From positions 1-36,968 of the forward strand of contig JAUZOX010000001.1 of assembly GCA_030706265.1 (NCBI GenBank): 36,968 bases of DNA, written 5' to 3'. Both the position numbers and the translations under genes were made by a program. The notes below the pieces were generated by a model that worked only from the letters and a program-made list of their open reading frames with translations, made no database searches and was not told the origin of the DNA. Below, one piece after another: positions 3,506-35,549 of this stretch. Within the stretch, counting starts at the first letter, position 1, and each line of letters begins with the position of its first letter. Source of the DNA: Bacteroidota bacterium. Lineage in GTDB: Bacteria > Bacteroidota > Bacteroidia > Bacteroidales > Cfx3-03.

Positions 3506-4539
3506 TGAAACGCTATCATATTCGTCTCTATAAGTGCCGTTTAAGATAGGGTGCTTGTTGCAATTAATAAGATAGCGATAGAGGAAGGCTTGGAAGATTT
3601 AAAAAGCATTACACAGGATAGCACTGTTGTCAAAACCAATATTCATTACCCCACCAATAATTCTTTGGTTTGGGACTGTATCAAAAAAGCACCCATTTAT
3701 TATCTCAGTTAAAGGAAGAAATGGATACCTTGAATTTTATTGATTACATGAAATCGGCCAAGAAAACCTATTATACAATCAATATGACCAAGAAGGAAGA
3801 GAAACGATACGACCTGTTAAGTAAACAACTGATTCTATTTACCAAGATGATTAATCAAACCTCTAATGCGATAAAAAAAAAGTCCACGAGCCTTATCGCT
3901 TATTTCATTCAGTTAGAGTTGACAGAGTTGCTCCCCAAGATGCAACAGATATATGACATTACGTATCGGAAACAGATTCAAGGGAAAGAGGTTCCAAATG
4001 AAGACAAAATATTTTCGATCTATGAAGATCATACAGATATTATTGTCAAAGGACAGCGGGAGGTACTCTTCGGACATAAAGTAAATCTGGCAGCCGGAAA
4101 AAGTAATCTTATACTTGACTGTCAGATATTAAAAGGAAATCCTTCTGACAAATCATTGTTTCAGACCACGATAGATACAGTTATCAGCAACTATAGTATC
4201 GTGCCTCGCGACAGCACCACTGATGGAGGGTATGCCAGTTTAGAGAATTAGAATTATGCCAGGAAAGCAGGTGTTAAAAATATTGGTTTTAACAAGGTTG
4301 TGGGTAGTATGCAGAATATTGTCAGCAGTTTGAACATGGAAACCAGGTTGAAAAAGTGGCGCAGTTCAATGGAGGCAATTATCTCGAATGTTAAACGTGG
4401 TTTTAATGTATCTACCTGTAATTGGAAAGGATGGGTGCATTTCAAGGCCAAGGTTCTTTGGAGTGTTTTGGCTTACAATTTCAGAGTGATGACAGCGCTT
4501 ATTATAGTTCAAATGAAGAGTTCACTAAAAACAGGGTAG
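3506..4539 (+). pseudogene. IS5/ISNCY-like DDE transposase, C-terminal two-thirds, decayed
   Basis: Catalytic landmarks: QDSTVVKTNIHYPTNNSLVWD (first D region, ~3620-3680), STTDGGY (second D, ~4220) and RSSMEAIISNVKRGF (E region, 4360-4400). Lesions: stop and frameshift between 3513 and 3547, a frameshift in the A6 run near 3680, and a frame break between 4251 and 4300. Confidence 0.75.
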
Positions 4540-4693
4540 AAAGTCTTAATATTCTTCATTTCAATCGTTTAAATATTATTTACTACAAAGTGATATAAAA
4601 CAATATTGCATATGAAATTAAAAATCTCACAGTTATTAACAGCTTTTGGCCGATCAAAACTGAATAACTCTGATTGAATATTAGGTTTAAACA
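3506..4693 (+). mobile_element. Right-hand portion of a ~1.6-kb IS (the partner half is at 35111-35549)
   Basis: The terminal sequence attgaatattaggtttaaac (4673-4692) is an imperfect inverted match to ctttaaactagatttctcaat (35111-35131). Subterminal tgatcg motifs also match. Confidence 0.55.
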
Positions 4694-5084
4694 TGTCCCC
4701 TGGTGTTTATTTTGATATACAAATATCAAACATTATTACGTTGATATACAAATATATATGTTTCACGTGGAACAAAATACACCATGATAATCAGCTAATT
4801 AAAGATATGTTGATAAATAATTTACTACATTGTTAATCAGAACATTATGAGCATTAGTTGTGAACATTGAAATTCAAGAAATATTCCAGTATTTTTGGAC
4901 TTTACCTTTTTATACTGGACTCATTATTGCAATTCATTTTCTGAAACGGGTCTCTGAATTAATCGATTGAATGTGACCAAAATTTATTAAGGTTCAAAAA
5001 CACATCATCGATAATTGTTCGCGTCTTGAATCTTTTTTAATCCACGATTTAATGTAAATTTGACCCTGTAATAATTTGATTAGT

Positions 5085-5669
5085 ATGGATAAATTCTACC
5101 TTGAAAAAATTCTGATTGAAAAATTGAAAGAAGGCGATAAAAGCGCCTTTTCTTTTCTTTTCAATGCATATTATACAGATCTGGTATTGTTTGCTAACAC
5201 GTTTCTTAAAGATCAGGATAATTCTGAAGAAATAGTTCAGGATGTATTCTTGAAGTTATGGGAAGAACGTGAAGTTATTATTTTTACATCAACCCTAAAG
5301 TCGTATCTTTTAAAGTTAATTCAGAATAGATGTCTGGATTGGTTACGACATATAAAAGTCAAGAATTCTTATTACGAACTGGCAATAAATAGTTTACCTT
5401 TACTCGAATGTGATACTGAACATTATATTCTAAGATCTGAAATAGAGAATATTATTGAAAAAACAATGACGAAAATACCTTTTGAGCTATCAGATACATT
5501 TAAATTGAACCGTTATGAATGTTTGAAATACAGAGAGATAGCGGAAAAATTGCATATTTCTAATCGAACGGTTGAAGATCGTATCAGCAAGGTTTTAAAG
5601 ATTCTAAAGGAAGAACTCAGAGATTATTTCATTACAATTTTTATAATTCTGTCAACATTATTTTGGTAA
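5085..5669 (+). CDS. ECF-type RNA polymerase sigma-70 family factor
   Basis: About 195 aa. Region 2-like segment (AFSFLFNAYYTDLVLFANTFL..EEIVQDVFLKLWE) and region 4 HTH (LKYREIAEKLHISNRTVEDRISKVLKIL). The first ATG is 5085; the ORF track begins at TTG 5076. Confidence 0.9.
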   Translation: MDKFYLEKILIEKLKEGDKSAFSFLFNAYYTDLVLFANTFLKDQDNSEEIVQDVFLKLWEEREVIIFTSTLKSYLLKLIQNRCLDWLRHIKVKNSYYELAINSLPLLECDTEHYILRSEIENIIEKTMTKIPFELSDTFKLNRYECLKYREIAEKLHISNRTVEDRISKVLKILKEELRDYFITIFIILSTLFW

Positions 5670-5842
5670 ACAATTTCTTTTTCGAAGAATAAAATCAACT
5701 TACAACTCACACATATTTATCTACATTAGCTTTCCTACTGATCCACTTGATAGCTATAGGTATTTGTGAACTGTCTCGGATCATTTTTTTGACGTTATCA
5801 TTTTTTTTGAATGTGGTTTTCAATTTCTAAAACGTTGTTACA

Positions 5843-6901
5843 ATGAAAATGGATCATATGAATAATTTAGAACAAGAAGAGGCTCTTCGATTAATTACAA
5901 AGTATCTGACAGATAGTGCAACAGATGAAGAGATAGCCGAACTTGAATCTTTGATAAAAGCATCGCCTGCCAACTGGAATTATTTTATGGGAATGAAAAA
6001 CATATGGCATTCCCTGGACAAAAGTATCAATCCGGCTACGATATCACCCAAAAATGCATTAGACAATGTAATGAAGCAGATTTCAAATGAATACACTATT
6101 ATACGCCTTTGGAGATTTTTCAAGACGGCTGCAGCTATTTTGCTCATTCCATTAGTGTTAGGTGGTTTATTCTGGATGAAATTCACACTTGATAAAACCT
6201 CGACTGCTTATAAAGAGGTTTTTACAGCAAACGCTACCCGCTTAGCGTTCAATCTGGATGATGGAACGAAAGTATGGCTTAACGCTGGAAGTAGTTTAAA
6301 ATATCCTGAGAAGTTTACCAGTCAACAACGTTCGGTATATCTTAAAGGTGAAGCCTATTTTGAAGTTAAATCTGATAAGTCAAAGCCGTTTATTGTTAAT
6401 ACGCAATCAATTTCAGTTAAAGCCACTGGAACAAAATTTAATGTACGTGCGTTTCTAGACCAACAATTATCAGAGGTGTCATTATTATCGGGGCAAGTTT
6501 CTGTCTTTAAATCCGGATCAAAAGAAAATACAATTATTTCACTTTTAAAACCTAACCAGCATTTAGATTATAATACCAATTCTCATCAAGGAGTACTTGA
6601 AGAAGGTGATCTATACAAGTATATATCTTGGCGTGATGGGAAGATTATCTTTCGCAATGATCCTTTAAGTGCAGTTTTAGAACGTATAGGTGAATTTCAT
6701 AATGTTCATTTCCAGTGCACAGATAAAAAAATATTGGAATACCGCTATCATATTACTTTTCAAAATGAATCACTTGATGAGATTTTGGACATCTTAAAGG
6801 CATCATCTCCTATAGACTTTAAGATAATGAAACGAAGTATTGATTTATCTGATAGTTCAATGCCTAAACAAGAAATCATCATTTTTCCAAAACGGAAATA
6901 A
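5843..6901 (+). CDS. FecR-family anti-sigma factor / transmembrane sensor
   Basis: 352 aa. One central TM segment (AAAILLIPLVLGGLFW), then a FecR-like periplasmic domain (LDDGTKVWLNAGSSLKYP..YLKGEAYFEV) and a C-terminal DUF4974-like tail. Sits next to the ECF sigma gene. Confidence 0.9.
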   Translation: MKMDHMNNLEQEEALRLITKYLTDSATDEEIAELESLIKASPANWNYFMGMKNIWHSLDKSINPATISPKNALDNVMKQISNEYTIIRLWRFFKTAAAILLIPLVLGGLFWMKFTLDKTSTAYKEVFTANATRLAFNLDDGTKVWLNAGSSLKYPEKFTSQQRSVYLKGEAYFEVKSDKSKPFIVNTQSISVKATGTKFNVRAFLDQQLSEVSLLSGQVSVFKSGSKENTIISLLKPNQHLDYNTNSHQGVLEEGDLYKYISWRDGKIIFRNDPLSAVLERIGEFHNVHFQCTDKKILEYRYHITFQNESLDEILDILKASSPIDFKIMKRSIDLSDSSMPKQEIIIFPKRK

Positions 6902-6973
6902 AAATCATAATTAATCTTAAAACATAAATGCCTATGTAAAAGAAAATAAAACTCATTGTCAGAAAATAAAAAA

Positions 6974-7082: not shown

Positions 7083-10000
7083 ATGAAAATAAAAATCATC
7101 AATGCATGGTTAGATAAACATTATATTTACAAAATCCTGTTCATTATGAAATTTACCTTGTTCTTTATGATACTCGGAATAATGAATATATTCGCCCTTA
7201 ATACATATTCTCAATCAGGTAAAGTTTCTCTCAATTTCAAAAACACCACAGTTGAAGAGGTACTAAATTCAATTGAAAAGGGAAGTGAGTATTATTTCGC
7301 TTATAATCAGAAATTAATTAATGTAAACCGAAAGGTTGATATTGTAGCAAAAAACAAGGATATCAAGGATGTGCTACGTGAACTTTTTAAGAATACTAAT
7401 ACCGATTATGTTGTAATCGATCATCAGATTGTTCTTTCACATAAACAAATTACAGAGAATGAATTGTCTGATATCCAGCAACAAGTTAAAGGTGTTGCGA
7501 TAACAGGAACCGTTGTCGATTCCAAAACAGGAGAAACTATTCCTGGGGTTAGTGTTTTTATTAAAGGAACTACTAAAGGTACACTTACAGATAAACAAGG
7601 AAAGTTTAACATTACTACAACTGACCCTAAAGCAACACTGAGTTTCTCATTTATGGGCTATGAAAGACAGGATATAAGTGTATCTGGGAAGACAAATTTA
7701 AACGTATCGTTAGTATCAACTGTGACAAATCTTGAAGAGGTTGTTGTTATAGGTTATGGTACTGTTAAAAGATCTAATTTGACAGGTGCAGTTGCATCAG
7801 TGAAAATGGATGACATACCAATTGTGGCAACTAATTCGGTATCAAACTTGTTAACAGGACGGGTGCCGGGACTTGTTATTACACAAAACTCCGCAGATCC
7901 GACAAGTGATTATTCTATCTTGGTGCGTGGTGCGACATCTACCGGAGCAGGGAATAGTCCGCTTTATGTTATCGATGGCTTTACCGGAGGAGATATCAAT
8001 GCCGTAAGTCCGAACGATATAGCGTCGGTGGAGGTATTAAAAGATGCGAGCGCAACAGCCATTTACGGGGCTCGTGCAGCCAATGGGGTTATTCTGGTGA
8101 GTACAAAGAAAGGAAAAAAGGGAAAACTGGAGGTGGGTGTGCAGCTTAATACGTCTGTTCAAACTATTTCTAACCCCTATAATATCGTTTCTGCAAAGGA
8201 ATATATGAGTCTCACAAATAAGTTTTATGTGGAAGAATGGATGTTTCAAAAGAAAATTGCGCCTTATGGCAACGTAGATCCCTCTACTGTAACAACTTCT
8301 CCCAAAGTTGCCTTTACAGATCAGGAAATCTCCTCTGCCAGTAATGTAACCAATTGGTTTGATGAAATATCCCGTACAGGTACTATTGACAATCAGAATA
8401 TCTCGATTAATGGGGGAAGCGATCAGGCCACATACTCATTATCTTTGGGACATTTCAAACAAAAAGGGGTTATATTCAATAGCGGATATGAAAAGTTTAT
8501 GGGGCGGTTGGCAGCTGACTTCAATTTGTCTAAATGGCTTACCACTGGTGTTTCGATTACTGGTAACCAGCAAAATTCTAATATGGCAGAAGGGAATTCT
8601 GGTACTGAGGATCCTACCGGTGTTATAAAAATGGCGTTGGCGTATCCCGGATATTTGCCTATCAGAGATGCTAATGGAAATTATCTTATAAATCCGGATC
8701 ACCCAACCTACCCCAATCCGGTTTCCTATAAAGAAGTGACTAATACTGAAATAAGCAATCGTTTTCTTATTACCAATTATTGGAGTGCCAAAATTAGGAA
8801 AGATTTGACATTTAGGGCCAGTATGGGCCTCAATCAGTCTTTTATCAGAAGTAATCAATATTACCCCAAAACAACCTTGCGTGGAATCTCTGTGAATTCA
8901 TACGCATCTATCGTGGAAAGACGTAATAATAATTATTTGTTGGATGCGACTTTAACCTACAAAAAATCGCTTTTCCAAAATCATAGCTTGACAGCGATGC
9001 TCGGCTATGCCTACCAAAAAATTATAAACGAAAATGTTTCGGCCTCGAATTCTGATTTTTTGACTGATGTGTACAATGTTTATAATTTAAGCGGAGGAGG
9101 AAACCTGACAAAAGGTGTTGGAAGTGGAAAGTCCATTAGCAAATACCTTTCCTATTTTGGACGTGTGAACTATGATATCAAAGATAAATATTTGTTTACA
9201 TTCACCCTGCGTGCAGATGGTAGCGATCGCTTCGGTGTGAATAATCGGTATGGATACTTTTCGTCGGGGGCAGTTGCATGGCGTATCTCGCAAGAAGATT
9301 TTATGAAATCACTGGAATCGATCTCAAACCTGAAGCTTCGCTTCAGCCTCGGCCAAACGGGTAATTCAGAGATTGGTGGGAATGCTTATGGTTATTACTC
9401 CTCAGGGAGTAACTATGTTATTGGTGGCAATCTACAAACTGGTGTTTCCGAATCCCAGTTGCCAAGCCCTAATCTAAAATGGGAAACGACTACAGAATTT
9501 AACCTTGGAATCGACTATGGTTTTTTCAAGAACCGGCTGAGGGGATCTGTGGATGTTTTTCGTAAAACTGTTTCCGATTTATTGGACAGCCGTAATGTGG
9601 GTTCTTATTATCCGGTATCTTCAGTTGCGGATAATTTAGGATCAACGTTAGGTCAAGGATGGGAATTCCAGTTAACAAGCACTAATGTGCAGAAAACTAA
9701 TTTCAACTGGACGACAACTTTAAGCCTCTCTCATTTTTATGATCGTTGGAAAGATCGTAATCCATATACTATATTGTCAGTCTATCAAACATCAACAGAC
9801 CCGTTGCATGTTGGATGGGGATATGTCAGCGATGGATTGATTCAGCCAGGAGATGATGTTTCGTACATGCCAGGGGCTGTCGTTGGAACGATTAAGTTGA
9901 GAGATTTGAATGGATGGCTCAAAGACGAAACCGGGAAATATATTTTGGACAAGAACGGCCGGCAACAGCTTTCTGGCAAGCCGGATCACGCTATAGACGA

Positions 10001-10493
10001 TGCCGATAAAGTTATAATCAACCATAGCCAACCTAAATTAACCGTTAGCTTAAATAACACCTTTCAGTATAAGAACTTTGATCTCAGTTTCTACTTTTAC
10101 GGAGAGCTTGGCAGGGAAAAGTACAACAATACCCTCAAATGGTTTCTGATGGCAGACAGGTTTAGGATGAGGGACAATACTTTGACTGATGCTTCTAATT
10201 TGTGGAGACATGATAATCTGAATGGTAAATATCCTTCTGGATTGGATGTAAAGTATGATAGTAGTAGCGATTTTTGGGTTGAGAAAGCAGATTTTATCCG
10301 TCTTAAAAGTGTGACTCTGGGATACACTCTTCCAAAATCTACTGGTAAATTTTTCCAAAATGCCCGTGTTTATGTGGATGCACAGAATTTGTTTGTGATC
10401 ACTAATTATACTGGTTCGGACCCTGAAACCGACGGTTTTTCCGCATACCCCAACCAGCGTACTTATTCTATAGGTTTAAATTTAAACTTTTAA
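7083..10493 (+). CDS. susC: SusC/RagA-family TonB-dependent outer-membrane transporter with N-terminal STN signalling domain
   Basis: 1136 aa. STN-like segment (VSLNFKNTTVEEVLNSIEKGSEYYFAYN), carboxypeptidase-regulatory-like domain (ITGTVVDSKTGETIPGVSVFIKGT), plug (VVVIGYGT..), and C-terminal ..RTYSIGLNLNF. An alternative start at 7146 (MKFTLFF..) is plausible. Confidence 0.95.
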   Translation: MKIKIINAWLDKHYIYKILFIMKFTLFFMILGIMNIFALNTYSQSGKVSLNFKNTTVEEVLNSIEKGSEYYFAYNQKLINVNRKVDIVAKNKDIKDVLRELFKNTNTDYVVIDHQIVLSHKQITENELSDIQQQVKGVAITGTVVDSKTGETIPGVSVFIKGTTKGTLTDKQGKFNITTTDPKATLSFSFMGYERQDISVSGKTNLNVSLVSTVTNLEEVVVIGYGTVKRSNLTGAVASVKMDDIPIVATNSVSNLLTGRVPGLVITQNSADPTSDYSILVRGATSTGAGNSPLYVIDGFTGGDINAVSPNDIASVEVLKDASATAIYGARAANGVILVSTKKGKKGKLEVGVQLNTSVQTISNPYNIVSAKEYMSLTNKFYVEEWMFQKKIAPYGNVDPSTVTTSPKVAFTDQEISSASNVTNWFDEISRTGTIDNQNISINGGSDQATYSLSLGHFKQKGVIFNSGYEKFMGRLAADFNLSKWLTTGVSITGNQQNSNMAEGNSGTEDPTGVIKMALAYPGYLPIRDANGNYLINPDHPTYPNPVSYKEVTNTEISNRFLITNYWSAKIRKDLTFRASMGLNQSFIRSNQYYPKTTLRGISVNSYASIVERRNNNYLLDATLTYKKSLFQNHSLTAMLGYAYQKIINENVSASNSDFLTDVYNVYNLSGGGNLTKGVGSGKSISKYLSYFGRVNYDIKDKYLFTFTLRADGSDRFGVNNRYGYFSSGAVAWRISQEDFMKSLESISNLKLRFSLGQTGNSEIGGNAYGYYSSGSNYVIGGNLQTGVSESQLPSPNLKWETTTEFNLGIDYGFFKNRLRGSVDVFRKTVSDLLDSRNVGSYYPVSSVADNLGSTLGQGWEFQLTSTNVQKTNFNWTTTLSLSHFYDRWKDRNPYTILSVYQTSTDPLHVGWGYVSDGLIQPGDDVSYMPGAVVGTIKLRDLNGWLKDETGKYILDKNGRQQLSGKPDHAIDDADKVIINHSQPKLTVSLNNTFQYKNFDLSFYFYGELGREKYNNTLKWFLMADRFRMRDNTLTDASNLWRHDNLNGKYPSGLDVKYDSSSDFWVEKADFIRLKSVTLGYTLPKSTGKFFQNARVYVDAQNLFVITNYTGSDPETDGFSAYPNQRTYSIGLNLNF

Positions 10494-10502
10494 AAATATA
10501 AT

Positions 10503-11987
10503 ATGAAAAAGAATATTTCTATATATAGTTTTATAATGCTGATATGTATTGGTATTATGAGCTGCACTGATTTGATGCACGAAGAATTTGGGAAAATTCC
10601 TTCTGACACCTTCCCTTCCTCTAGTAAAGATTTGGATGCTGCTGCCATTGGCGTTTACAGTTCTCTTGGCAATTCATTCATTGCGCAAAGTCTTGATTAT
10701 TCCGGGCTAACAGCAAATGAGCTATGTACAGATGAAATGAATACTGCTTGGGGAGGCACCTGGCAAATATTTAACCGTTTTGCCTGGACAGCTAATAGTA
10801 GTCCCGCATCAAGTTTGTACTCTACATACATGAAGGCAATTACGAAAGCCACCCGCTTGATCGACGCTTTACAAAATTCAAGTGTGAGTGCAGAAAAGAA
10901 AATGGCATCTATTGCTGAAATGCGTGTTCTCAGAGCATTCTATGCCAATGCACTGTATTCTTTATATGGACCACTGCCTATTGTCACAGATCCGAAAGTG
11001 GCCAATGATGTTTATACAGCGTACAAGCCGGTACGTCCGACAAAAGAAGATTACGTGAACTTTATGATTAACGAATTAAAAGAATCCTATTCTTTGCTGC
11101 CAAACAAGTCTTCCAGTGAGAATTGGGGACGTGTAGATAAGGGTACCGCATTAACCTTGCTAATGAAAATCTACTTGGATTCAAAGATGTGGAATGAAGC
11201 AAATACAACAGCAGGAGATATCATAAATATGGGCATTTACGGTTTACTTCCTTCGTATGCAGATGTTTTTAATATTGCCAACGAAGGCCCGGGAAACAAA
11301 GAAGTTATTTTTGTGATCCCCAGGATTACTTCCAATGCGTCATCCTCCTGGTCATATTTTGCCTGTGTCTTGCCTTCCAAGCCTCAAATGAAAAGCAAAA
11401 CGGGTGTGATTATGACTGTTTGGGGCGGCTTGAAAATGCCTTGGGAATATTACGATAAATATGAAACACAAGACCAACGATTGAATACTATTATCCGTTA
11501 TTACGTTGATGTAAATGGCAATCAGGTGGATTTTCGTACTGTGACAGATTCGAAGGCTGTCGGGGCTATTCCTATGAAATATTCGGAAGACCCTCAGCAT
11601 CTGGCGGCAGCCCAAGGTAATGATTTTGTCGTTTTCCGCTATGCCGATGTATTGTTGTCAAAAGCAGAAGCGTTAAATCAGCTAAATGGCCCCACGGCCG
11701 AGAGTATTGAATTAATCAACCAAATACGCAGAAGAGCAAAAGCAACGGAAATTAAATTGGCTGATTTTACAAAGCAAAGCTTAGATGATTTTATTCTGGA
11801 TGAACGTGGCCGCGAATTATACAACGAAGCTCATCGCCGGAACGATTTGATTCGTCATGGAAAATTTATCCAAAGCGCAGTTAATAGAGGTGTTAACGCG
11901 CAACCTTATCAGGTACTTTATCCTATTCCTCAATCAGCGATCAGTGAAAACCCGAACCTGAAACAGAACCCAGGCTACGAGAATTAA
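10503..11987 (+). CDS. susD: SusD/RagB-family nutrient-binding outer-membrane lipoprotein
   Basis: 494 aa with a lipoprotein signal (..GIMSC). SusD-like C-terminal motifs (FRYADVLLSKAEALN, ERGRELYNEAHRRNDLIRHG). Lies directly after susC. Confidence 0.9.
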   Translation: MKKNISIYSFIMLICIGIMSCTDLMHEEFGKIPSDTFPSSSKDLDAAAIGVYSSLGNSFIAQSLDYSGLTANELCTDEMNTAWGGTWQIFNRFAWTANSSPASSLYSTYMKAITKATRLIDALQNSSVSAEKKMASIAEMRVLRAFYANALYSLYGPLPIVTDPKVANDVYTAYKPVRPTKEDYVNFMINELKESYSLLPNKSSSENWGRVDKGTALTLLMKIYLDSKMWNEANTTAGDIINMGIYGLLPSYADVFNIANEGPGNKEVIFVIPRITSNASSSWSYFACVLPSKPQMKSKTGVIMTVWGGLKMPWEYYDKYETQDQRLNTIIRYYVDVNGNQVDFRTVTDSKAVGAIPMKYSEDPQHLAAAQGNDFVVFRYADVLLSKAEALNQLNGPTAESIELINQIRRRAKATEIKLADFTKQSLDDFILDERGRELYNEAHRRNDLIRHGKFIQSAVNRGVNAQPYQVLYPIPQSAISENPNLKQNPGYEN

Positions 11988-11990
11988 ATT

Positions 11991-12036
11991 TTTCAATACA
12001 GGGAAGACAAAGAGATTTGTCTTCCCTGTATTGAAA
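11991..12036 (+). terminator. Perfect 20-bp stem hairpin just after the susD stop
   Basis: tttcaatacagggaagacaa-agagat-ttgtcttccctgtattgaaa. The following T-run is weak (aaattg). Confidence 0.55.
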
Positions 12037-12324
12037 ATTGTCTAAAAATGAAAAATTAACTTTTGTATGTGAATAAGAGGAAGAAAAGTCACAACTTTAC
12101 TTTGCCAGGAAATAAATCCTGATCATTAAGGTTCACCTAAATCTTAGAAACCGTTTATATTTCATATCTCTAAGATTTTTTGTGTCGCCCCTCAAGCGGT
12201 TGCCGGAAGCACAAAAAATCAACAGACAGTTGTCTGATTTGGGTAAATTTTTGATTTTTGAACGTAGTTCTAATTTTTAAACAATCTGCTATAAACACGC
12301 AAAATAGTTGTAATTTAATTGAGT

Positions 12325-13812: not shown

Positions 13813-15437
13813 ATCACTACTGTCCAGTTAAAATAATCTGAGTGACAGTTAAGTTCTTTGACATCTTTGTAATCTACATTTGCAATAAGCTCATTTACAG
13901 GAGTTTTATCAAGAAGTGATATCCCAATTACCTGTAATATTTCGTAGGTAGACCTTGATATTTTCAACTCATTCCCTACGATTGAAACCAGACAGTAGGT
14001 AATAAGAGCACAATAAATTTGGATTAGAACAGCATTTTGAGAAGTACCCCAAAAAGATTTTATTTTCAGATGTTGTTTAATCCATTTGAAGATGTTATGG
14101 AAAGCTTTACATAACTTCTTTTATGGAAAGTAAAAGATTATGTAAAGCAACATCGATAAATAGTGCTGTAACCATTATAAATAGGCAACTACTTTACAAT
14201 ATTACTTTACATAAATCTTAGAGCTAATTCTTAAAGTTTTCTTCAGATGAAGCAGATTGAGCCATAAACTGAACAAGGTTACTTTATCATAAAAATATAT
14301 TATGATCAAACATAGCAGATAATAAGCCTGATAATCAGTTTACTTAAACTACACCCAGCAGTTCTTCTCCTTTTTTGACATTATTTATTTTACTACTTTT
14401 AGCTCAAGCATAATGCTCATTATTAAATTAAACAATAATATTTATGGAAAGTGTTTATGGAAAGTAACAACGTGTTTAGGGCCTTTCAAGAAGGTAAATG
14501 CTAAATACTTTACATAATCTTTTACTTTCCATAAAAAAAGAGCTCTATCTGCCAACGATTTTTATATAGTAAGGCCACTTGAACGGACGTGATATCAAAA
14601 TTATTGGTTAGGTAAATGAATGTTCGATTGGTTTATTCATCGTGAAATTTAACTCTGCGAAGTTTGTCTGGATACCTTTTGGAAATATAAAATCCTTTGA
14701 GTTTGCCAATTTGGTTACATAATACACCAGAACTCTTGTCAATCTTTTGAGAATATATCCTGTTAAATTGAAGGTTTGATTTTGCACGGATAACAAAAAA
14801 GGCTGAATGTTGAGTTATCTTGAACAGTCTCGTGTAATCGACATAACCTCTGTCAAAGATGTAATACGCATTTTGCTCATAATTAAGATAATCCATTGCG
14901 TTTACATCATTCACCTTTGCAGGAGTAATATGCACGAAAGCAGGTATTTGAGTCGTTATATCAAAAAGAGTATGTAGTTTTATGCCTCTTTATGCCTCCT
15001 TTTGCTTTACGAAACTTTGCCCACCAGAAGACACTCAAACAGAGATCAATGGTTGATGAGTCAAAAGCATATACAGTTCCTTTGATCTCAAAATCATCAT
15101 TAGCTCTGTTCCTTCTGGCAATATCAATAAGGTGATAAGCAAACTCTTCAAATATTTTGCTATTTCTCGTTTCATTGGCTTTAGCCAGATTGCTCCTTGT
15201 AACGTTTTTTCCAAAACCCAGGTGGTAGGATTTGTTACTATGAGCATTCAAAGCAACCATTAAATCCCGAAGACTATCCCGATTAGTGAGTTGACCAAAG
15301 AGCATACAAAGCAATTGGTTCCAGCAAGTGAAATGCTTGACATACTTATTGCCTTCATACTTTTCAACTATACGATCGAAAATCCGTTGAGGGAGAAATT
15401 CAACTATCTGTGCGAACACATATATGCCTTGATTCAT
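13813..15437 (-). pseudogene. IS4-family transposase, inactivated
   Basis: N-terminus MNQGIYVFAQIVEFLP.. (DUF4372-like), then DSSTIDL, FDRGYVDY, and NRWQIELFF / FKWIKQHLKIKSFWGTSQNAV. Lesions: a 10-bp tandem duplication (14981-15000) causing a frameshift, an in-frame TAA at 14633-14635, and a ~446-bp insertion between the ELFF and FKWIKQ codons. Confidence 0.85.
14091..14539. mobile_element. ORF-less MITE-like element nested in the IS4 transposase gene
   Basis: Perfect 27-bp inverted repeats ttatggaaagtaaaagattatgtaaag (14121-14147) and its reverse complement (14508-14534). An extra 20-bp near-palindrome sits at 14095-14114. Boundaries are good to about +/-5 bp. Confidence 0.55.
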
Positions 15438-19874: not shown

Positions 19875-20009
19875 ATGAATAAAAGAAACTACTTACAGGC
19901 TTTAGCATTATTTCTCTTGCTAATAAATATAGCATTCTTCGTAAATGCTACAAATCTGAACAATAGCACCTCTAAAAAAAAATTCCGCATCAAATGGAGG
20001 GAAAATTAA
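19875..20009 (+). pseudogene. Orphan 5' fragment (signal peptide only), paralogous to the start of the GH106-like gene
   Basis: 44-codon ORF MNKRNYLQALALFLLLINIAFFVNA... About 120 bp are highly similar to 22497-22615, and similarity is lost after ~19998. Confidence 0.55.
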
Positions 20010-22447: not shown

Positions 22448-22547
22448 TATGTTTTCGCCCAGCTTTTGCAGTTTGTTAACATATGTGAATATGAAAAATA
22501 AAAACTGATGAAAAAAAAACTACTTACAGGCTTTAGCATTATTTCTC

Positions 22548-29619: not shown

Positions 29620-30912
29620 ATGACTAGAATTTTATTCGTTAAAAACATGTGGAAGTGCATTATGTTTATGATGCTTGTCCCGGTATTTGCTAATGCATCT
29701 GTCTGTTATGAAGGGCCGTCAGGCAAACACGATTCAATTGAACAAAGTGGTACAGAAAATCAAAAAACCAGGAATGGTGTACCGGATAGCCTTGCGAAGT
29801 TTAGTCTGGTCAGCAGTTCTCATATGGGTGTTGCTGCTGACTATACAAAACCCTTACAACTTACATTTAATCAGGATGTTGATGAAAATAAGCTTAAAAA
29901 CATTATAATTACCAAGGGTGGAGCAGATCGCGAGCCAATAGGAGCCGATACCAAAATACTTTCTGGTAAGTGGGTACTGTCAAGCACTCCCAGAAAAATT
30001 GTTTTCAAACCAGCCCAAAAATTCAAGCCTGGAATGTTTGTCTCGATAACTATTCCTGAAACGTTTAAAAGTTTGTCAGGGGTGGGTTTTACGGGAGGGA
30101 AAGATCTGATCAGCTTCATCATGGATAATGGGGAGAAGAAGGGTCAACGTACAACCAAGATAGACACTTTAAAAGTAGTGGATAATAACCTCATTCCATT
30201 AATGATCAGTGTGCCTAATACTGCCGAGAAGCACCCGGTTATGATATTTATACACGGTGGTGGCTGGTCGGGAGGCAAACCAGCCTTGTCATCTGCTTCA
30301 TTGCCTTCTGGACATACTGCAAGTTATCTTTGCGATAAATTGGGTGTAGCGGTGGTAGGTGTTGGCTATAGATGCACTGGTTCCAATGGCAGCTTTGCCA
30401 AGGCCAAGGCCGATATAGAAGACGCGGTAAAATACGTTAAAAAACATGCGGCTGAGTATAATCTGGACCTTAGCAGACTAGGTATTTGCGGCGAATCTGC
30501 TGGTTCTCCGCTGTCCGCCATTATTGCCCAACAGGATAAGGACATCAAATATTACATTGGATGGAATGGTATTTACGATTTTGTAAATGATAATGATGGG
30601 GAGTTTGGTCAGGGGAATGGTTACGGACAGGAGGAGCCATCTGCCGAGGCAAATTCGGCGTTGTTTCACATCCGGCGACCGTCACCTCCAATCACCCTGT
30701 TGATACACGGAACAAATGACTTGACAATTAATTATCGTCAGAGTGTTGCGTTTGACAAGGCCATTAAAGACGCGGGTGGATATTCCAAACTTATCCTGTT
30801 CGAAGGCCAGCCACATTGGTCATATTATGCTCCACGCGGAAAATATGAACTGTCAACCCTTTATCAGATCAAAGACTTTTTAATAAAAAAGATGGATTTA
30901 AAGGTGAAATAG
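29620..30912 (+). CDS. Alpha/beta-hydrolase esterase (Abhydrolase_3/BD-FAE-like) with N-terminal Ig-like domain
   Basis: FIHGGGWSGG oxyanion motif and GESAGS nucleophile elbow. The N-terminal LQLTFNQDVDENKL.. segment is SbsA-Ig-like. Start placed at the signal-peptide Met MTRILFVKNMWKCIMFMMLVPVFANA; the ORF is open from 29422. Confidence 0.75.
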   Translation: MTRILFVKNMWKCIMFMMLVPVFANASVCYEGPSGKHDSIEQSGTENQKTRNGVPDSLAKFSLVSSSHMGVAADYTKPLQLTFNQDVDENKLKNIIITKGGADREPIGADTKILSGKWVLSSTPRKIVFKPAQKFKPGMFVSITIPETFKSLSGVGFTGGKDLISFIMDNGEKKGQRTTKIDTLKVVDNNLIPLMISVPNTAEKHPVMIFIHGGGWSGGKPALSSASLPSGHTASYLCDKLGVAVVGVGYRCTGSNGSFAKAKADIEDAVKYVKKHAAEYNLDLSRLGICGESAGSPLSAIIAQQDKDIKYYIGWNGIYDFVNDNDGEFGQGNGYGQEEPSAEANSALFHIRRPSPPITLLIHGTNDLTINYRQSVAFDKAIKDAGGYSKLILFEGQPHWSYYAPRGKYELSTLYQIKDFLIKKMDLKVK

Positions 30913-31038
30913 CTGTGGCTATGCTTCATTCAGTAGGTGAAAGTAAGTGATCCTCGTTGAAGCCACTGCTTAGTTAGCCAGTGAATTAAAAACTAAAAAG
31001 CAAAAGTTATAAAAACAAGCAACATAAAGAATAAAGAG

Positions 31039-33432
31039 ATGATGAAAAAACATTTATTGAAAAACGGGTTCTTAATAACCTTCTTTCTACTGTTATCACT
31101 ATTAGTATACTCACAGGATAACCCAAGAGTAAAGGAAAATTTTGACTTCGACTGGAAGTTTAAATTAGGCGATGTAAAAGAATCAATTTCTCAGGGCTAT
31201 AACGATGCTCTTTGGGAGGACGTACAACTTCCACATGATTGGAGCATTAAGCAAACGGCATCGAAGCCAAAGCCCGGCAGCAGCTGGATGGTCGCCAGTA
31301 TGGGTTACCTGCCGGGAGGCATTGGCTGGTATCGTAAAACCTTCACGGTTCCCCAATCGTATAAAGACAAAAAAGTCGTGATTCAGTTTGGCGGTGTTTA
31401 TCTTCAAAGCGATGTATATATCAATGGCAAACATTTAGGGTTTCACCCTTACGGTTATACCACATTCGAGTATGACCTGAGCCCCTACCTCAACTTAGGA
31501 GGGGAGAATACCATCGCCGTGCGGGTCGATCACAGTAACTGCCCTACTTCACGTTGGTATTCAGGTTCGGGGATTTACAGGCATGTATGGCTGGAGGTGA
31601 CCAATCCGGTGCATGTAGCTACCTGGGGAACATATATCACAACCCCCGAGATTTCAGAAAAGGAATCGAAAGTCAACATCGCCACCACCATTGAAAATGA
31701 TACTCAAAATCCGGTAGAAGTTTTGGTACAAAACCAGATCGTTGATAAACAGGGGATGAAAATTGCCATGGGAAAGTCAAAGTTTCAGCTTGATAAATCA
31801 GGAAAGAAAATCCTTCCGCAGTCCTTGGTTCTCCCGAAACCTCACCGGTGGTCAACCGATGATCCGTACCTTTACACTATGGAAACAACAGTGATCGTTA
31901 AGGGTAAAACTGTTGATCAATATAAAACGCCTTTTGGAGTTCGGGAAATACGGTTTGATGCGGATAAAGGCTTTTTTCTCAATGGAAAGAACATGAAAAT
32001 GCAGGGGATGTGCCTCCACCAGGATGCCGGTTCTTTGGGTACTGCAGTTCCCGACCGATCCTTCTTGCGCAGGCTTCAGATTCTCAAAGAATATGGCGTC
32101 AATGCTATCCGCTGCTCACACAATCCACCTGCATCGGAGTTTCTGGACATGTGCGACAGCTTGGGCTTTCTGGTCATCGACGAAGCATTTGATAAGTGGA
32201 AAGGCATGTATTACAGCCAATATTTTGATGACTGGTGGCAGCGTGATTTGGATGCGATGGTTCTCCGCGACCGGAATCACCCGTCTGTGGTTCTTTGGAG
32301 TATTGGAAATGAGACAGGTGAGCAACGTGATAAAACCGAAGTAGGGGGTAAACGCGCCCTTATGCTGAAGGATTATGTTCATAAACTTGACCCCACCCGT
32401 TTGGTGACCGCTGCACTTCAGCCCGATAAATCGAGAAGTTACAACTCAAACGGATTTGCGCAGGCGCTCGACGTTGTTGGGTACAACTATCAGGAACCCT
32501 GGCTGAAAGATGAACATAAAAAATATCCGGACCGCATCATTTACGTATCCGAGGCTTACCCGTATTACCGGGGGAAGGGCCCTGAATACAAAGCGTTTTA
32601 CCCGGTAAACCCTTGGTACGACGTAGCCGATAACGATTTTGTTTTCGGCCAGTTTATTTGGGCAGGTGTGGATTATTTGGGAGAAAGCAGCGGATGGCCC
32701 AGCACTGGTTGGGTGACTTCGCCATTCAATGTCTGTATGTTTGAAAAACCAGCTGCGGCATTCAACCGGGCGGTCTGGAATTCTGAGCCAATGGTACGGA
32801 TCGCGGTTGCCGATCAATCGTTGAATATCGATCCCGGCAAGCCGCACTGGGATTGGCCATTTCTGGCAGATCACTGGAATTTTCCCCAGTACGAAGGGCA
32901 CGTAATCCATGTGGTAACCACGACAAACTGTGACAGTGTCTCGCTGATTCTGAATAATAGATCCTTGGGCACCCAAAACACAGCGGAGTATGCAAACAAC
33001 ACAATCGATTGGTATGTCCCGTACACAGAAGGCACCATTGTCGCCAAAGGGTATCGGGGCGGTCAAGAGGCTTCAACCTATGAACTGAAGACAGCCGGTA
33101 TGCCAGCGCAAATTCAGCTGTCAGCAGATCGCCTGCAGATTGAGTCCGACGGACAGGACCTTTCGCATATTACCATTAAATTGATAGATGAGCATGGCAT
33201 GTTGGTTCAAAATGCGGACCAGAAAATTACCGTAGAGGTAACCGGCAACGGCAGGTTGCTGGGGCTGGACAATGGAGACCTGAGAAGGAGTTCCTTTACA
33301 GGCGACTCCATTGCAACCTATTTTGGTAAAGTACTTACAATTGTACAATCTATTCGTAAACAAGGAGCAATAAATGTAAAAGTTACTGCAGATGGTTTAC
33401 CTGAAGCAACTTTGACGATATTGGGAAAATAG
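31039..33432 (+). CDS. GH2 beta-galactosidase/beta-glucuronidase-family glycoside hydrolase
   Basis: FDFDWKFKLGD, RWYSGSGIYRHVWL, NAIRCSHNPPASEFLDMCDSLGFLVIDE and WSIGNE (acid/base). Confidence 0.9.
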   Translation: MMKKHLLKNGFLITFFLLLSLLVYSQDNPRVKENFDFDWKFKLGDVKESISQGYNDALWEDVQLPHDWSIKQTASKPKPGSSWMVASMGYLPGGIGWYRKTFTVPQSYKDKKVVIQFGGVYLQSDVYINGKHLGFHPYGYTTFEYDLSPYLNLGGENTIAVRVDHSNCPTSRWYSGSGIYRHVWLEVTNPVHVATWGTYITTPEISEKESKVNIATTIENDTQNPVEVLVQNQIVDKQGMKIAMGKSKFQLDKSGKKILPQSLVLPKPHRWSTDDPYLYTMETTVIVKGKTVDQYKTPFGVREIRFDADKGFFLNGKNMKMQGMCLHQDAGSLGTAVPDRSFLRRLQILKEYGVNAIRCSHNPPASEFLDMCDSLGFLVIDEAFDKWKGMYYSQYFDDWWQRDLDAMVLRDRNHPSVVLWSIGNETGEQRDKTEVGGKRALMLKDYVHKLDPTRLVTAALQPDKSRSYNSNGFAQALDVVGYNYQEPWLKDEHKKYPDRIIYVSEAYPYYRGKGPEYKAFYPVNPWYDVADNDFVFGQFIWAGVDYLGESSGWPSTGWVTSPFNVCMFEKPAAAFNRAVWNSEPMVRIAVADQSLNIDPGKPHWDWPFLADHWNFPQYEGHVIHVVTTTNCDSVSLILNNRSLGTQNTAEYANNTIDWYVPYTEGTIVAKGYRGGQEASTYELKTAGMPAQIQLSADRLQIESDGQDLSHITIKLIDEHGMLVQNADQKITVEVTGNGRLLGLDNGDLRRSSFTGDSIATYFGKVLTIVQSIRKQGAINVKVTADGLPEATLTILGK

Positions 33433-33536
33433 TACTATTTTTCAAGGCTTGAAACTAAATAAGTAATGAGAATGAAATAATGTCGCATAATTTGGTTTAA
33501 AATTCTGACTCACCCACTGCATGAAATGGGCAACAT

Positions 33537-34075
33537 TCAAGTCTCTAATGCAACTTTGGTTAATTGGTTAAAGATATATAAAGGGGATCGATATCCCAAT
33601 CGTTTTTTGGGTCTGTTATTGAGTTTGTCCTCCACCCACTGCACCTGCTGATCCGAGACTCTGTCAAAGTCTGTTTTCTTAGGGAAAATACTGCCTTATC
33701 AGCCTGTTTGTGTTCTCGTTAGCGCCTCTTTCCCAGCTGTGATAAGGGCGGGCGAAGAAGAAATCGATGTTCAGGCATTCTCTGATCATTTCGTGTTTGG
33801 CAAATTCTTTTCCATTGTCGGAAGTGATGGTATGCAGGAAGTTCCTGTAATCGTATAGCAAATTGATGGTTGCCATGGCCATCCCTTTTGCTTCTTTGGA
33901 GGCCACTTTCTTGATCTTCACCAACCCTGATCTGAGGTCATTGGTGGTTCCATGGCTCCTTTATGATCCTTGCCGATAATGGTGTCCAGCTCAAAGTCTC
34001 CCACCCGGTTTTCTCTTCCACGATCAGAGGTCTTTGGGATATGTCCACCCTATTCAGAATTGGGTGGTCTAAAAA
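33537..34075 (-). pseudogene. IS30-family transposase, 5'-truncated and frameshifted
   Basis: ITSDNGKEFAKHEMI..FFARPYHSWERGANENTNRLIRQYFP, then (after a frameshift) KKTDFDRVSDQQVQWVEDKLNNRPKKRLGYRSP. An upstream frame carries NRVDISQRPLIVEEKT. Confidence 0.75.
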
Positions 34076-34104
34076 ATCTCGACAGAAAAATTGCTTACAT
34101 TTAA

Positions 34105-34236
34105 ATTTTCTGTCGTAGGAAAAGATCAAGAAGAGTATTTAGTGGAGAGTTCAAGGCCAAAGTAGCCATTGAAGCGGTAAAAGAGGAAAAGACGATTTCC
34201 GAACTGGCTCAGATTTATCAGGTACATCCCATCTGA
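34105..34236 (+). pseudogene. IS3-family orfA (HTH) N-terminal fragment
   Basis: RRKRSRRVFSGEFKAKVAIEAVKEEKTISELAQIYQVHP resembles IS3/IS911 OrfA starts. It ends in a stop with no orfB. Confidence 0.55.
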
Positions 34237-34277
34237 TAACCTCCTGTTTTCGTCAATGGGACACCCAAAAGATATTT

Positions 34278-34562
34278 TTATTTCATAATTATATCAAAAA
34301 GCTCCTGTTGTTCTCTGTCCATCTTTAGTTTTTGATTTTTTGTTTCCTTGGTGTGTGGGAGCTGATATCTGATTTGATACATATTGTGTGTTATTTCCTG
34401 AGCCCTTTTCAGACTTAATCCGGATTTCCGGGATTTAAGCAAGCGTTCCAATTCGAGCATAATTGTATATGCAGTGAAGCAAATGCAAATATGTGCCTTG
34501 ATCCTATTGTATAAACGATGGTAAATTGGACGTACCCGAAGATCGGTTTTGTTCATACGGAA
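34278..34562 (-). pseudogene. IS4-superfamily (IS1634-like) transposase, 3' fragment only
   Basis: FRMNKTDLRVRPIYHRLYNRIKAHICICFTAYTIMLELE matches the C-terminal FRxxKxxLxxRPIxH..IxAH block. The fragment begins 4 nt from the palindrome at 34567. Confidence 0.6.
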
Positions 34563-34566
34563 TGCC

Positions 34567-34586
34567 TTATGTAAAGCTTTACATAA
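34567..34586. repeat. Perfect 20-bp palindrome TTATGTAAAGCTTTACATAA joining two transposase 3' fragments head to head
   Basis: Read directly. A near-identical copy (TTATGGAAAGCTTTACATAA) is at 14095-14114. Confidence 0.95.
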
Positions 34587-34590
34587 AACA

Positions 34591-34963
34591 TATAAACAGC
34601 TCAAGCAGAATTTTCCTCTCAAATACTTTCTGGGAGACAATGATAATGCAATAAAAATTCAAATCTATTGTGCTTTGATTGCCAATTTACTAATGACAGT
34701 CATTCAAAAAATGCTCAAAAGAAGTTGGGCCTTCTCAAATCTTGTAAGTTTTTGCAAAATACACCTGTTCAATTACATTCATTTGATCAACTTTCTTGAA
34801 AATCCAGATAAAGACTGGCTTAAAACAATACAAATAGAACAACAATTGCAACTGTTCTAAAGTGACTAACTATTTAAAAAATGAGAAATCATAAAAACAC
34901 ATATTCTAATTCAATTAGTTATGAGTTGAAAAATGAGTTTTGTATTTTTACCGGACAACAATG
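34591..34963 (+). pseudogene. IS4-family (DUF4372-type lineage) transposase 3' fragment plus IS end
   Basis: YKQLKQNFPLKYFLGDNDNAIKIQIYCALIANLL aligns with FKWIKQHLKIKSFWGTSQNAVLIQIYCALITY of the 13.8-kb copy. The terminal gtatttttaccggacaacaatg (34942-34963) resembles that element's IR. Confidence 0.65.
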
Positions 34964-35110
34964 TTTGGTTTTAATAGTTTCAATCCTAAATCGCAAAACA
35001 AATACCAAATATCCATTTTGCCTTGATAACATTCTAAATCTCTAAGTCCATTAAAAGCGTTACGGTTGTCATATTCTTTTATGTATGGCGGATTACTAAT
35101 TAGTGTCTGG

Positions 35111-35549
35111 CTTTAAACTAGATTTCTCAATAAATATGCGGGTTCTATGATCGATACAAAAAAAGTTCTTTGTATCTTTGATCAAAGATAATCTCTTGAA
35201 ATTTTTCAATGATTTGCTTTTAAAATTTGAGCAGCCCAATTGGTCAAGGCAGCCGATATTTTGTTTAATTGATTCTAATCTTGAAAATCACCCACAGATT
35301 ATTTTAATGATGAAAGGGGACATTATTGGCCGTGATCCTGTCTCTCAATTCGGTCGCAAGGACACACCAAGCGTTGAGCAAATAGTACGGGCAGCGATAT
35401 TCAAAGAGGTGAAGGGTTACGATTATCGGGAACTGGAGGAAGCACAGATAGACTCAAGAGCCTGTGAAACCTTCATTAAACCTGAAGGTCGCGATCCATT
35501 CAGTTTCCAATTTTTTCATAAATACATCTCCAGAATTAAGCCTGAAACG
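35111..35549 (+). mobile_element. Left-hand portion of the IS5/ISNCY-like IS (partner of 3506-4693)
   Basis: IR-like end at 35111-35131. The transposase N-terminus (35178-35549) has a DUF772-like segment GRKDTPSVEQIVRAAIFKEVKGYDYRELEEAQIDSRACETF..ISRIKPET. It breaks at TGAAACG (35543-35549). The rest of ORF 35178..35759 is antisense read-through of the integrase gene. Confidence 0.65.

Follow-up and report, generated by a model that had tools for sequence, protein, structure and literature searches.

Gene content of the contig

The window, by which the whole stretch of DNA analysed here is meant, is one entire short-read contig (36,968 bp) of a metagenome-assembled genome (MAG). Most of it is taken up by a PUL, a set of genes for the degradation of sugars, on the forward strand (5076–33594; Pfam and NCBI names) with genes for an ECF sigma factor, FecR, SusC, SusD, a GDSL esterase, alpha/beta hydrolases and GH53, and further for GH115, GH106, a deacetylase, GH78, an esterase and GH2; it also contains the remnant of an IS4-family element on the reverse strand (14633–15437). 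Homology to L003 stops at about 33594, the right edge of the PUL, and beyond this is a zone of IS debris (33595–35099) in which NCBIfam models recognize fragments of IS30 (33679–33924, reverse strand), IS1634 (34278–34640, reverse strand) and IS4 (34549–34860, forward strand).

On each side of the PUL, a block of about 30 kb, lies one of two complementary pieces of an ISNCY-family insertion sequence, both on the forward strand and in the order C-part, PUL, N-part. Outside them is integrase-element DNA. The stretch on the left (1–3544), the right arm of an integrase island (E), shows homology to contigs L088–L091 over 1726–3544 and has all of its genes on the reverse strand: an NTase-like gene (299–937), which is a weak match under the Pfam and NCBIfam cut-offs, orf109 (1007–1336), orf148 (1632–2078), which contains 54-bp tandem repeats, and orf81 (3184–3429). 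The stretch on the right, likewise on the reverse strand, consists of a tyrosine integrase gene (35558–36557; PF00589, 46.8 bits; PF13102, 29.3 bits) and the end of an IS21-family element (36558–36968) with the 3' part of istB (36627–36962 and beyond; PF01695 IstB_IS21, E = 1.3e-25), inside which the contig stops. The boundary between the two was placed at 36558, the point where integrase homology ends.

The split insertion sequence and its junction

The C-part (3545 to about 4700) holds the transposase codons from DRVLV onward, and the N-part (35100–35557) those from a TTG at 35196 through to KPETTD. As reference for the alignments we used L001 (1684 bp), the closest copy that is intact; its protein, P0001, scores 349.5 bits against NF033593 (cut-off 325). 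Window positions 35093–35557 align with L001 78–542 at 94.6% identity, and 3545–4654 with L001 538–1648 at 96.0%, so that the two pieces overlap by exactly 5 bp on the intact element, defining GATAG as their common core. Across the break site L001 reads CCTGAAACGATTGATAGGGTGCTT; the right end of the N-part reads ACGACTGATAG, with 35557 as its last base, and the C-part begins with GATAGGGTG from 3545. The core copies therefore lie at 3545–3549 and 35553–35557 (forward strand). The break within the transposase gene is precise and reciprocal, with no base gained or lost at GATAG. In intact proteins a single residue separates PET from DRVLV.

The original prediction had described an IS gene split in two, with its halves flanking the PUL in reversed order, and this is real; the details, however, were wrong. 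The junction had been placed at a 7-bp TGAAACG, found at 3506–3512 and 35543–35549 (forward strand). The right copy is ordinary IS sequence, present at the same position in the intact element and 3 nt upstream of the GATAG core, whereas the left copy is island DNA and no recombination core: window positions 1726–3544 are 89–91% identical to four unrelated contigs (L088–L091), the homology stops exactly at 3544, and the motif lies within this conserved block, where L088 has TAAAACG. The window has five copies of TGAAACG on the forward strand, and the pairing of these two can be put down to chance, since 33% of random 80-nt stretches of the window also have a 7-mer in common. Bases 3506–3544 are integrase-element DNA, including 3513–3544, which had been read as part of the IS (as 3513–3545), a result that the original prediction itself had named as one that would count against it. 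Of the site-specific event proposed there, an exact reciprocal exchange inside the transposase gene stands, with a different core.

Nor is the IS complete, as had been thought. Its left terminal repeat, TTAGTGTCTGGC, is present in the N-part (35100–35111, forward strand; by comparison with L001), but the right tip, some 40 nt long and containing the terminal repeat that ends in CAGACACTAA in L001, was not found anywhere in the window. The C-part is frameshifted by the loss of one nucleotide near 3687 and has TAG as a stop codon at 4249–4251, and the N-part starts with TTG where the intact form has ATG. The ISNCY element in the window is a pseudogene. A search of the protein collection revealed no intact close copy from either of the two MAGs in which the locus is represented (see below), and this, together with the decayed look of both halves, fits a single old IS copy.

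The integrase and the flanking arms

The stop codon of the integrase gene (35558–35560) directly abuts GATAG. The tyrosine recombinase gene noted earlier at the right junction is thus adjacent to it, the gap being 0 bp rather than 8 bp. Alignment with P0122–P0133 indicates a full C-terminus with the R, K, H-x-x-R, H and Y residues conserved, and the absence of about 75 N-terminal residues, corresponding to the arm-binding domain. By this alignment and an analysis of the reading frames, the IS21 element has truncated the integrase at its N-terminus and inactivated the enzyme.

The two outer arms were once contiguous and belong to the same island, bearing out the view that integrase-element DNA lies outside both junctions. 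Apart from the position of the integrase stop codon against GATAG, this follows from gene order in L002, which carries the closest integrase (56% identity) and, 179 bp downstream, a homologue of orf81 (55% identity over 31 aa, E = 4e-6); the synteny is known from this one 1.9-kb contig. When the window arms are rejoined, the corresponding spacing is 120–159 bp. Rejoining also restores a hairpin. A 9-bp inverted repeat has one arm, AATAGATGA, at 3500–3508 (forward strand) and its partner, TCATCTATT, at 35558–35566, and CTATC (3513–3517) pairs with GATAG to extend it to an interrupted 14-bp stem (9+5). The rejoined arms fold at −9.8 kcal/mol (z = −3.89; none of 200 shuffles as stable), and no such hairpin is formed by the actual junctions or by the rejoined IS site (z from −0.8 to +1.0).

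Elements with related integrases are small islands that sit in the chromosome at tRNA genes. Among 80 loci with distantly related integrases (30–40% identity), 28 have their attachment site marked by a tRNA gene, in every case 5' of int, and in none of the 80 is there a tRNA within 3 kb past the int stop codon. In these distant relatives, the genes that follow the int stop codon belong to the interior of the element. GATAG is probably not the canonical att of the island: with the att of its relatives lying 5' of int and never just past the stop, the junction would be inside the island and not at its edge.

Discussion

How the split arose is more than one short-read metagenome contig can show. 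The reading favoured here, with a rough probability of 0.45, is that a circular molecule consisting of the PUL and the IS was taken into the integrase island through a single reciprocal exchange at GATAG. The partners would have been the GATAG in the IS transposase gene and that of the hairpin just past the int stop codon. As the outer IS ends are joined to each other in the contig through the 30-kb PUL, the PUL and IS together would have had to form a closed circle, some 33 kb in size, at the time of the crossover. Opened within the IS, the whole circle would now lie between int and the downstream orf81. Later, IS21 would have truncated int, and the IS halves would have gained the frameshift and stop codon and lost the start codon. 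The agent may have been the integrase next to the site, working on a non-canonical sequence within the hairpin, or the ends may have been joined at a microhomology of 5 bp without any recombinase; the transposase of the IS itself is excluded, because the crossover joins the middle of its gene to non-IS DNA. What we infer is that the intermediate was circular, that the context is chromosomal and single-copy, and which enzyme acted.

Circle capture is supported by the complementary IS halves with their 5-bp overlap, by island DNA reaching exactly 3544, by a complete integrase C-terminus whose stop codon abuts GATAG, by the hairpin of the rejoined arms (z = −3.9), by the int-orf81 order of L002, by the att position 5' of int (28 of 80 loci), by the signs of a single old IS copy, and by the adjacency of PUL and int, which was recovered in the assemblies of two MAGs, their GH2 proteins being identical but for a single residue. 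Against it, the right tip of the IS is gone, and recombination between two complete copies would have yielded this circle only with a further deletion; for a tyrosine recombinase a core of 5 bp is short, and relatives have their att in another place. The evidence comes from a whole short-read MAG contig, its left junction (island, IS C-part, PUL) from one MAG only and the synteny from a single 1.9-kb contig, and none of the collections searched contained an empty site, a circular junction or a further case; the empty sites had been named earlier as a check. Of the two models put forward in the original prediction, capture of a circular PUL and IS beside int is the better fit.

Another reading is canonical integration, with GATAG as the attP core of the island and the IS gene as attB, into which the enzyme inserted a circular island, the topology being left open. 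Lambda and Tn916 have their att site on the side of the int 3' end, and here the junction touches the integrase stop codon and the exchange is exact, with a common core; the adjacency of int and orf81 in L002 could also reflect a circular or attP-type arrangement. It is nevertheless unlikely, and the earlier idea of the IS gene as attB is disfavoured with it, as the tRNA-marked sites of relatives are 5' of int (28 of 80) and just past the stop in none, the orf81-orf148 module in L088 and L089 is deep within an int-HTH-...-cargo element, the partners are identical over only 5 bp, and no second IS copy with such an insertion was found.

A duplication seems similarly improbable. If the unit of island, IS C-part, PUL and IS N-part were present at least twice and collapsed by the assembler into a cyclic path, the observed order would result; the contig does begin and finish in island DNA, and path-extending assemblers may pass from unique DNA into a repeat. 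Such a tandem could come from unequal crossing-over between interrupted and intact IS copies flanking the PUL, or from the other model of the original prediction, in which the element hit two IS copies independently. This double insertion requires an active integrase, and the enzyme is inactivated by IS21. Both MAG contigs run unbranched through the int/IS21 joint and stop inside IS21, which would require the same IS21 insertion in both copies; the contig continues past the outer limits of the IS (35100 and about 4700), the points at which two copies would make the assembly branch, and the protein collection holds no other close IS copy from these MAGs.

The statement that simple insertion cannot give this order is valid only in a linear, single-copy context. 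On a circle it produces exactly C-part, PUL and N-part, the order depending on where the contig is cut, and the window could be the linearised part of a plasmid or of a cointegrate between the island and a PUL+IS circle; the contig has island DNA facing away from the PUL at either end, the right end stopping in an IS21 repeat. Less probable still is our estimate of this: replication, partition, mobilisation and conjugation genes are all absent from the 37 kb, plasmid and phage collections gave no match, the contig ends do not overlap, and no IS21 or integrase N-terminal sequence is present at the left end. Related integrase elements, moreover, are chromosomal, and a relative with a 74%-identical sigma/FecR pair has this pair in a 5.3-Mb chromosome.

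Least probable is an assembly chimera, in which an island-interrupted IS elsewhere and one or two intact copies beside the PUL were swapped within the common 0.46 or 1.15 kb of IS sequence: IS elements are classic sites of wrong joins, the contig is a short-read one and its left junction is from one MAG, but the path from PUL through N-part to int was assembled independently in the second MAG, the decay marks on both halves fit one dead copy and not active repeats, the protein collection lacks an intact close copy from either MAG, and the two halves differ from L001 to much the same extent (94.6% and 96.0% identity).

The proposed circle capture at GATAG resembles the lambda attP x attB reaction, integration of mobilisable elements of the Bacteroides NBU1/NBU2 type and integron attI x attC cassette capture in its exact conservative exchange, with a short core at both junctions and a tyrosine recombinase gene directly beside the site, and resembles integron attC in particular in having the site within hairpin-forming sequence. 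It differs from all of them in a core of only 5 bp, in a site 3' of int (5' in relatives), in an insert that is a 33-kb PUL+IS and not the integrase's own element or a cassette, and in an integrase that is now truncated and whose catalysis is putative. The inferred circle of one IS copy and neighbouring cargo, moved as a block, is reminiscent of IS26-type translocatable units and cointegrates; here, however, the crossover cuts the transposase gene internally and has non-IS DNA as its other partner, it is neither at the IS ends nor beside a second IS copy, and one terminal repeat is missing. That absence also separates the locus from a composite transposon, which it recalls in having IS-derived sequence in direct orientation on both sides of the cargo: the pieces sum to one IS, not two, and it is the ends of this IS that face the cargo, its internal sequence facing outward. 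Remnants of IS30, IS1634, IS4, IS21 and ISNCY elements are heaped at the right edge of the PUL and interrupt one another as in nested mobile elements, but nesting yields N-part, insert and C-part, the reverse of the order seen.

PULs of Bacteroidota can be carried on integrative and conjugative elements, an example being the porphyran PUL of Bacteroides plebeius. The window is similar in that its PUL is embedded in integrase-bearing mobile DNA. It differs in having no conjugation or mobilisation genes, and in that the PUL is not ordinary island cargo but a block of its own, with permuted IS halves at its borders, one that would have been taken up whole, as a circle, by the island.

Structure of the Split IS

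The IS is divided into two parts that flank the PUL in permuted order, and alignment to its closest intact copy (contig L001) confirms that this arrangement, the central observation of the original prediction, is real and far beyond chance. In local alignments, the N-part to the right of the PUL (35093–35557) corresponds to L001 78–542 with 94.6% identity, and the C-part to its left (3545–4654) to L001 538–1648 with 96.0% identity, the two overlapping on L001 by exactly 5 bp. The N-part matches L001 through ..CCTGAAACGACTGATAG, its last base being 35557, the C-part begins at 3545 with GATAGGGTGCTT, and the intact IS reads ..AAGCCTGAAACGATTGATAGGGTGCTTGTT.. across the split point, representing an empty attB-like site. 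The core shared by both junctions is GATAG (3545–3549 and 35553–35557), with no other part of the IS lacking across the joint. Since the two pieces, with their 5-bp overlap, make up just one IS, a composite transposon with two complete IS copies around its cargo, as had been suggested, does not describe the locus.

A different core, the 7-bp motif TGAAACG, had been proposed earlier and is replaced by GATAG. The left TGAAACG lies inside sequence homologous to four contigs from other samples (L088–L091), and reads TAAAACG in L088. Sharing of this motif is in any case unremarkable, as it is present at five + strand positions, and in 33% of cases random 80-nt stretches drawn from the window have an exact 7-mer in common. 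In seven intact IS proteins, ..KPET and (D/Q/H)RVLV are separated by one residue only (I or L), so the 32 nt at 3513–3544 cannot belong to the IS. Independent proof is provided by L088–L091, which are 89–91% identical to window 1726–3544, with homology ending exactly at base 3544.

The assignment to the ISNCY family comes from the intact homologue P0001 (450 aa), which scores 349.5 bits against NF033593 (transpos_ISNCY_1; cut-off 325) and is 95% identical to the rejoined window transposase. The IS in L001 is 1684 bp long, with perfect 12-bp terminal repeats, TTAGTGTCTGTC. The window has the left terminal repeat, TTAGTGTCTGGC, at 35100–35111, but the IS is not the complete element first described: about 40 nt of its right tip, including the terminal repeat, are missing, and no copy of that repeat was found anywhere in the window with up to two mismatches allowed. 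Besides the split at GATAG, the transposase frame is interrupted by the loss of 1 nt near 3687 and by a TAG stop codon at 4249–4251, and it starts with TTG in place of ATG. At the beginning of the C-part, 40 nt contain three copies of GATAG (3545–3585; GATAGGG.., AAGATAGCGATAGAGG), and CTATC and ATAG motifs are also clustered in the adjoining island arm (3500–3517).

The Integrase Island

The gene next to the right-hand junction encodes a tyrosine recombinase (int; 35558–36463, - strand, with the frame open to about 36557), with matches to PF00589 (46.8 bits; cut-off 27.1) and PF13102 (29.3 bits). Its catalytic columns (R169, K204, H277, R280, H303 and Y312) are invariant in the integrase alignment (A5), the R, K, H-x-x-R, H and Y all being kept, and its C-terminus is full length (..HPFFTNR, compared with ..HPFFQGK in P0122, a protein 56% identical to it). 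The stop codon (TCA on the + strand, 35558–35560) adjoins GATAG. The other end is truncated: about 75 N-terminal residues are lacking, equivalent to the arm-binding domain PF17293 present in most of the closest relatives (~400 aa). At 36560 the frame stops beside one end of an IS21-family element, having been cut at about 36558, and the 3' part of istB of that element fills the right end of the contig.

The left arm of the island carries orf81 (3184–3429), orf148, orf109 and a gene for a weakly NTase-like protein of 212 aa, all on the - strand, as is int. PHROGs and NCBIfam searches with the small ORFs of the island gave no informative matches. Three findings show that these arms formerly made up one piece. 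First, in L002, the contig of P0122 and the only close integrase relative in the databases (a scan of genome contigs with the integrase protein found none), a homologue of orf81 lies 179 bp downstream of int (55% identity over the 31 aa present, E = 4e-6), and removal of the insert from the window gives an int–orf81 spacing of 120–159 bp. Second, rejoining the arms creates a perfect 9-bp inverted repeat, AATAGATGA (3500–3508) and TCATCTATT (35558–35566), extended by CTATC and GATAG. Without the insert the island would read GTGCCGTTTAAGATAGTCATCTATTTGTG, and the re-formed IS, or a PUL+IS circle, CCTGAAACGACTGATAGGGTGCTTG. The rejoined island sequence folds with -9.8 kcal/mol (z = -3.9), and none of 200 shuffled sequences was equally stable; z values for the present junctions and for the re-formed IS site are between -0.8 and +1.0. 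Third, gene orientation is continuous across the rejoined joint.

Contigs L088 and L089 carry the orf81–orf148 module deep inside an element with the order int, HTH_17, 94 aa, 606 aa, orf80, orf130 and 259 aa. The upstream boundary of the module matches the crossover within about 5 nt (window 3544 and L088 6606; also L089 6989 and L090 88), and upstream of it lies the 606-aa gene in L088 and int in L002 and in the rejoined window. The crossover point looks like a recurrent mosaic boundary of this element family. Within orf148 (1632–2078, - strand), three tandem 54-bp repeats at 1665–1826, with 94% and 76% identity to the first, encode ..GMPGSTPPGMPPASYSAN.., and their number varies among elements, since the homologues in L088–L091 are shorter (130 vs 148 aa).

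Position of the Attachment Site

The position of att was compared across 80 GTDB loci found with the integrase alignment, the integrases of which are 30–40% identical to that of the window; these loci were useful for this purpose only. A tRNA gene lies on the same strand just upstream of the 5' end of int at 10 loci, and in the opposite orientation, 3–6 kb beyond the 3' end, at 18 others; at none of the 80 does a tRNA follow the int stop codon within 3 kb, and none has a homologue of orf81. Both tRNA arrangements imply that att lies 5' of int and that the genes after int are element interior. The idea that the IS gene served as attB is therefore unsupported, and GATAG is probably not the island's own att site, although relatives at this distance are only indicative. 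Since att is 5' of int in the relatives, the 32-kb block of IS C-part, PUL and IS N-part would lie within the island interior, directly after the int stop codon, and L088 and L089 agree with this indication. Its insertion point looks like the terminator hairpin of int.

A stretch resembling a tRNA 3' end upstream of int in L002 was considered as an att remnant and rejected, as ARAGORN found no tRNA and the stem positions are unpaired. Scans of the window for tRNAs and Rfam families found nothing. Exact scans with both island-end sequences gave no match in viral contigs, and the right-end sequence had four matches in metagenome contigs, all of them a chance 19-mer in unrelated marine contigs.

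The PUL and Its Surroundings

The PUL (5076 to ~33594) is of the pectin/arabinogalactan type. It has an adjacent SusC-like/SusD-like pair (NCBI names TonB-dependent receptor, 7083–10493, and RagB/SusD protein, 10503–11987), CAZymes and regulators; GH53, GH115, GH2 and a FecR-domain protein are also named by NCBI, and Pfam adds GH106, GH78, esterases and an ECF sigma factor. Directly after the SusD stop codon is a perfect inverted repeat of 22 nt whose loop is 4 nt long (11990–12037) and which probably acts within the PUL as a strong terminator or an attenuator. A direct repeat of 98 nt (copies 88% identical; 19881–19978 and 22512–22609), just upstream of or across the starts of GH115 and GH106, may be a leader or signal-peptide region shared by these two neighbouring CAZyme genes.

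The PUL is itself a mosaic. The 230-kb ENA contig_19160 (L003) shares with the window only the GH2 module (~30827–33594, ~97% identity), which it carries in a different PUL. The shared block includes about 210 bp upstream and 165 bp downstream, with unrelated DNA on either side in L003, where the upstream flank holds a 61-aa remnant of the window's esterase gene. It looks like a single-gene module exchanged between PULs. Two Logan contigs (L092 and L093) share SusD and neighbouring genes with the window and have a different sigma/FecR region, in which no IS was found. Although from different runs, both begin at one shared position, some 266 bp ahead of the sigma gene, which suggests repeated or hard-to-assemble sequence at the left edge of that PUL; this edge has no similarity to the IS of the window. 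A 5.3-Mb genome (L095) has a 74%-identical sigma/FecR pair in a PUL array on its chromosome, followed by different genes. As empty-site references these four relatives were rejected, none being syntenic enough to show the ancestral flanks.

The right edge of the PUL (33595–35099) is a pile of IS30, IS1634 and IS4 fragments. A 20-nt palindrome, TTATGTAAAGCTTTACATAA, lies at 34567–34586, where the IS1634 and IS4 fragments meet, and is related to a pair of 33-nt inverted repeats inside the PUL (14115–14147 and 14508–14540; 97% complementary, 360 nt apart). The pair is beside another IS4-family remnant (- strand), consisting of a 158-aa DUF4372 part (14961–15437) and a DDE fragment (14633–14935). 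A MITE-like derivative is one candidate explanation for these repeats, abutting IS ends another.

Origin of the Arrangement

Apart from one GATAG at each joint, neither the IS nor the island has lost or duplicated any base there. An exchange of this kind would be accounted for by one reciprocal crossover joining a GATAG of the IS to one of the island. In any single-copy scenario the partner would be a closed circle of about 33 kb, since the outer ends of the IS are linked through the PUL. Integration would have opened this circle within the IS, followed later by the insertion of IS21 into int and the decay of the IS. The neighbouring integrase could have catalysed the joining at a hairpin site other than its canonical one, an option that agrees with how exact the exchange is and with its location at the stop codon of that same integrase; or the joining could have been a recombinase-independent event at a 5-bp microhomology. 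Insertion of a DDE type with a 5-bp target duplication was rejected, as inspection revealed no inverted repeats at the ends of the island or of the 32-kb block, and the loss of a GATAG from the IS itself would also be required. As corrected, the locus is nested mobile DNA of an unusual kind, and may record the capture of a circular PUL+IS molecule by the integrase island, a reading to which we assign a probability of about 45%. A more specific version, argued by loose analogy with integron attI/attC, is a long shot: the hairpin 3' of int would be a capture site, and the integrase would have taken up a 33-kb circular translocatable unit (the whole PUL and one IS) via a GATAG pseudo-site in the transposase gene. 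A literature search gave general reviews only, and no direct precedent for the arrangement.

Other histories could lead to the same sequence. If the whole unit were duplicated in tandem, the copies would collapse to this same contig in assembly; we consider this improbable. On a circular replicon, the order of C-part, PUL and N-part would be trivial, but the 37 kb include no genes for replication or transfer, the island arm had no blastn match among plasmids and phages, and the ends of the window, which is the complete 36,968-bp contig of the NCBI metagenome-assembled genome (first gene Q8908_00005), do not overlap; such an origin is distinctly improbable.

An assembly switch inside the IS must also be weighed in a short-read MAG. 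A second MAG of the same population (protein accessions MDP4289445–MDP4289463 for one MAG and MDP4239639–MDP4239645 for the other) has an identical integrase on a 16,909-bp contig and a GH2 differing at 1 of 797 residues. Accession order places the integrase beside GH2, followed by a deacetylase and a partial GH115, and since the latter comprises 548 of 783 aa, the contig should cover window positions ~20,800 to ~37,700 and thus also end inside IS21. The left junction is observed only once, because the left part of the locus (FecR, the NTase-like gene and orf148) is absent from the second MAG. A chimera is nevertheless very doubtful, as the right-hand path was assembled twice, both IS halves bear marks of decay, and the protein collection contains no intact close IS copy from these MAGs. 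Finally, two independent insertions of the island into two IS copies, as the original prediction allowed, are unlikely given that the integrase is dead and that both MAG contigs cross the int/IS21 joint without branching.

Biological Implications

The corrected GATAG junction and the rejoined island sequence are exact targets for read mapping or PCR. If a duplication, a plasmid or a misjoin lies behind the arrangement, the locus is an ordinary case of mobile elements that are nested in one another and decaying within an IS-rich region. Which glycans Bacteroidota can eat is decided by their PULs, and the movement of whole PULs between genomes is only partly understood. If the single-copy reading of circle capture is right, a complete 30-kb PUL travelled as a circle with one IS and was fixed inside an integrase island by one exact crossover, and PUL transfer would then have a route that connects IS-generated circles with such islands. 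Should the hairpin also prove to be a capture site, this would be a previously undescribed route by which entire PULs are moved into mobile islands in Bacteroidota.
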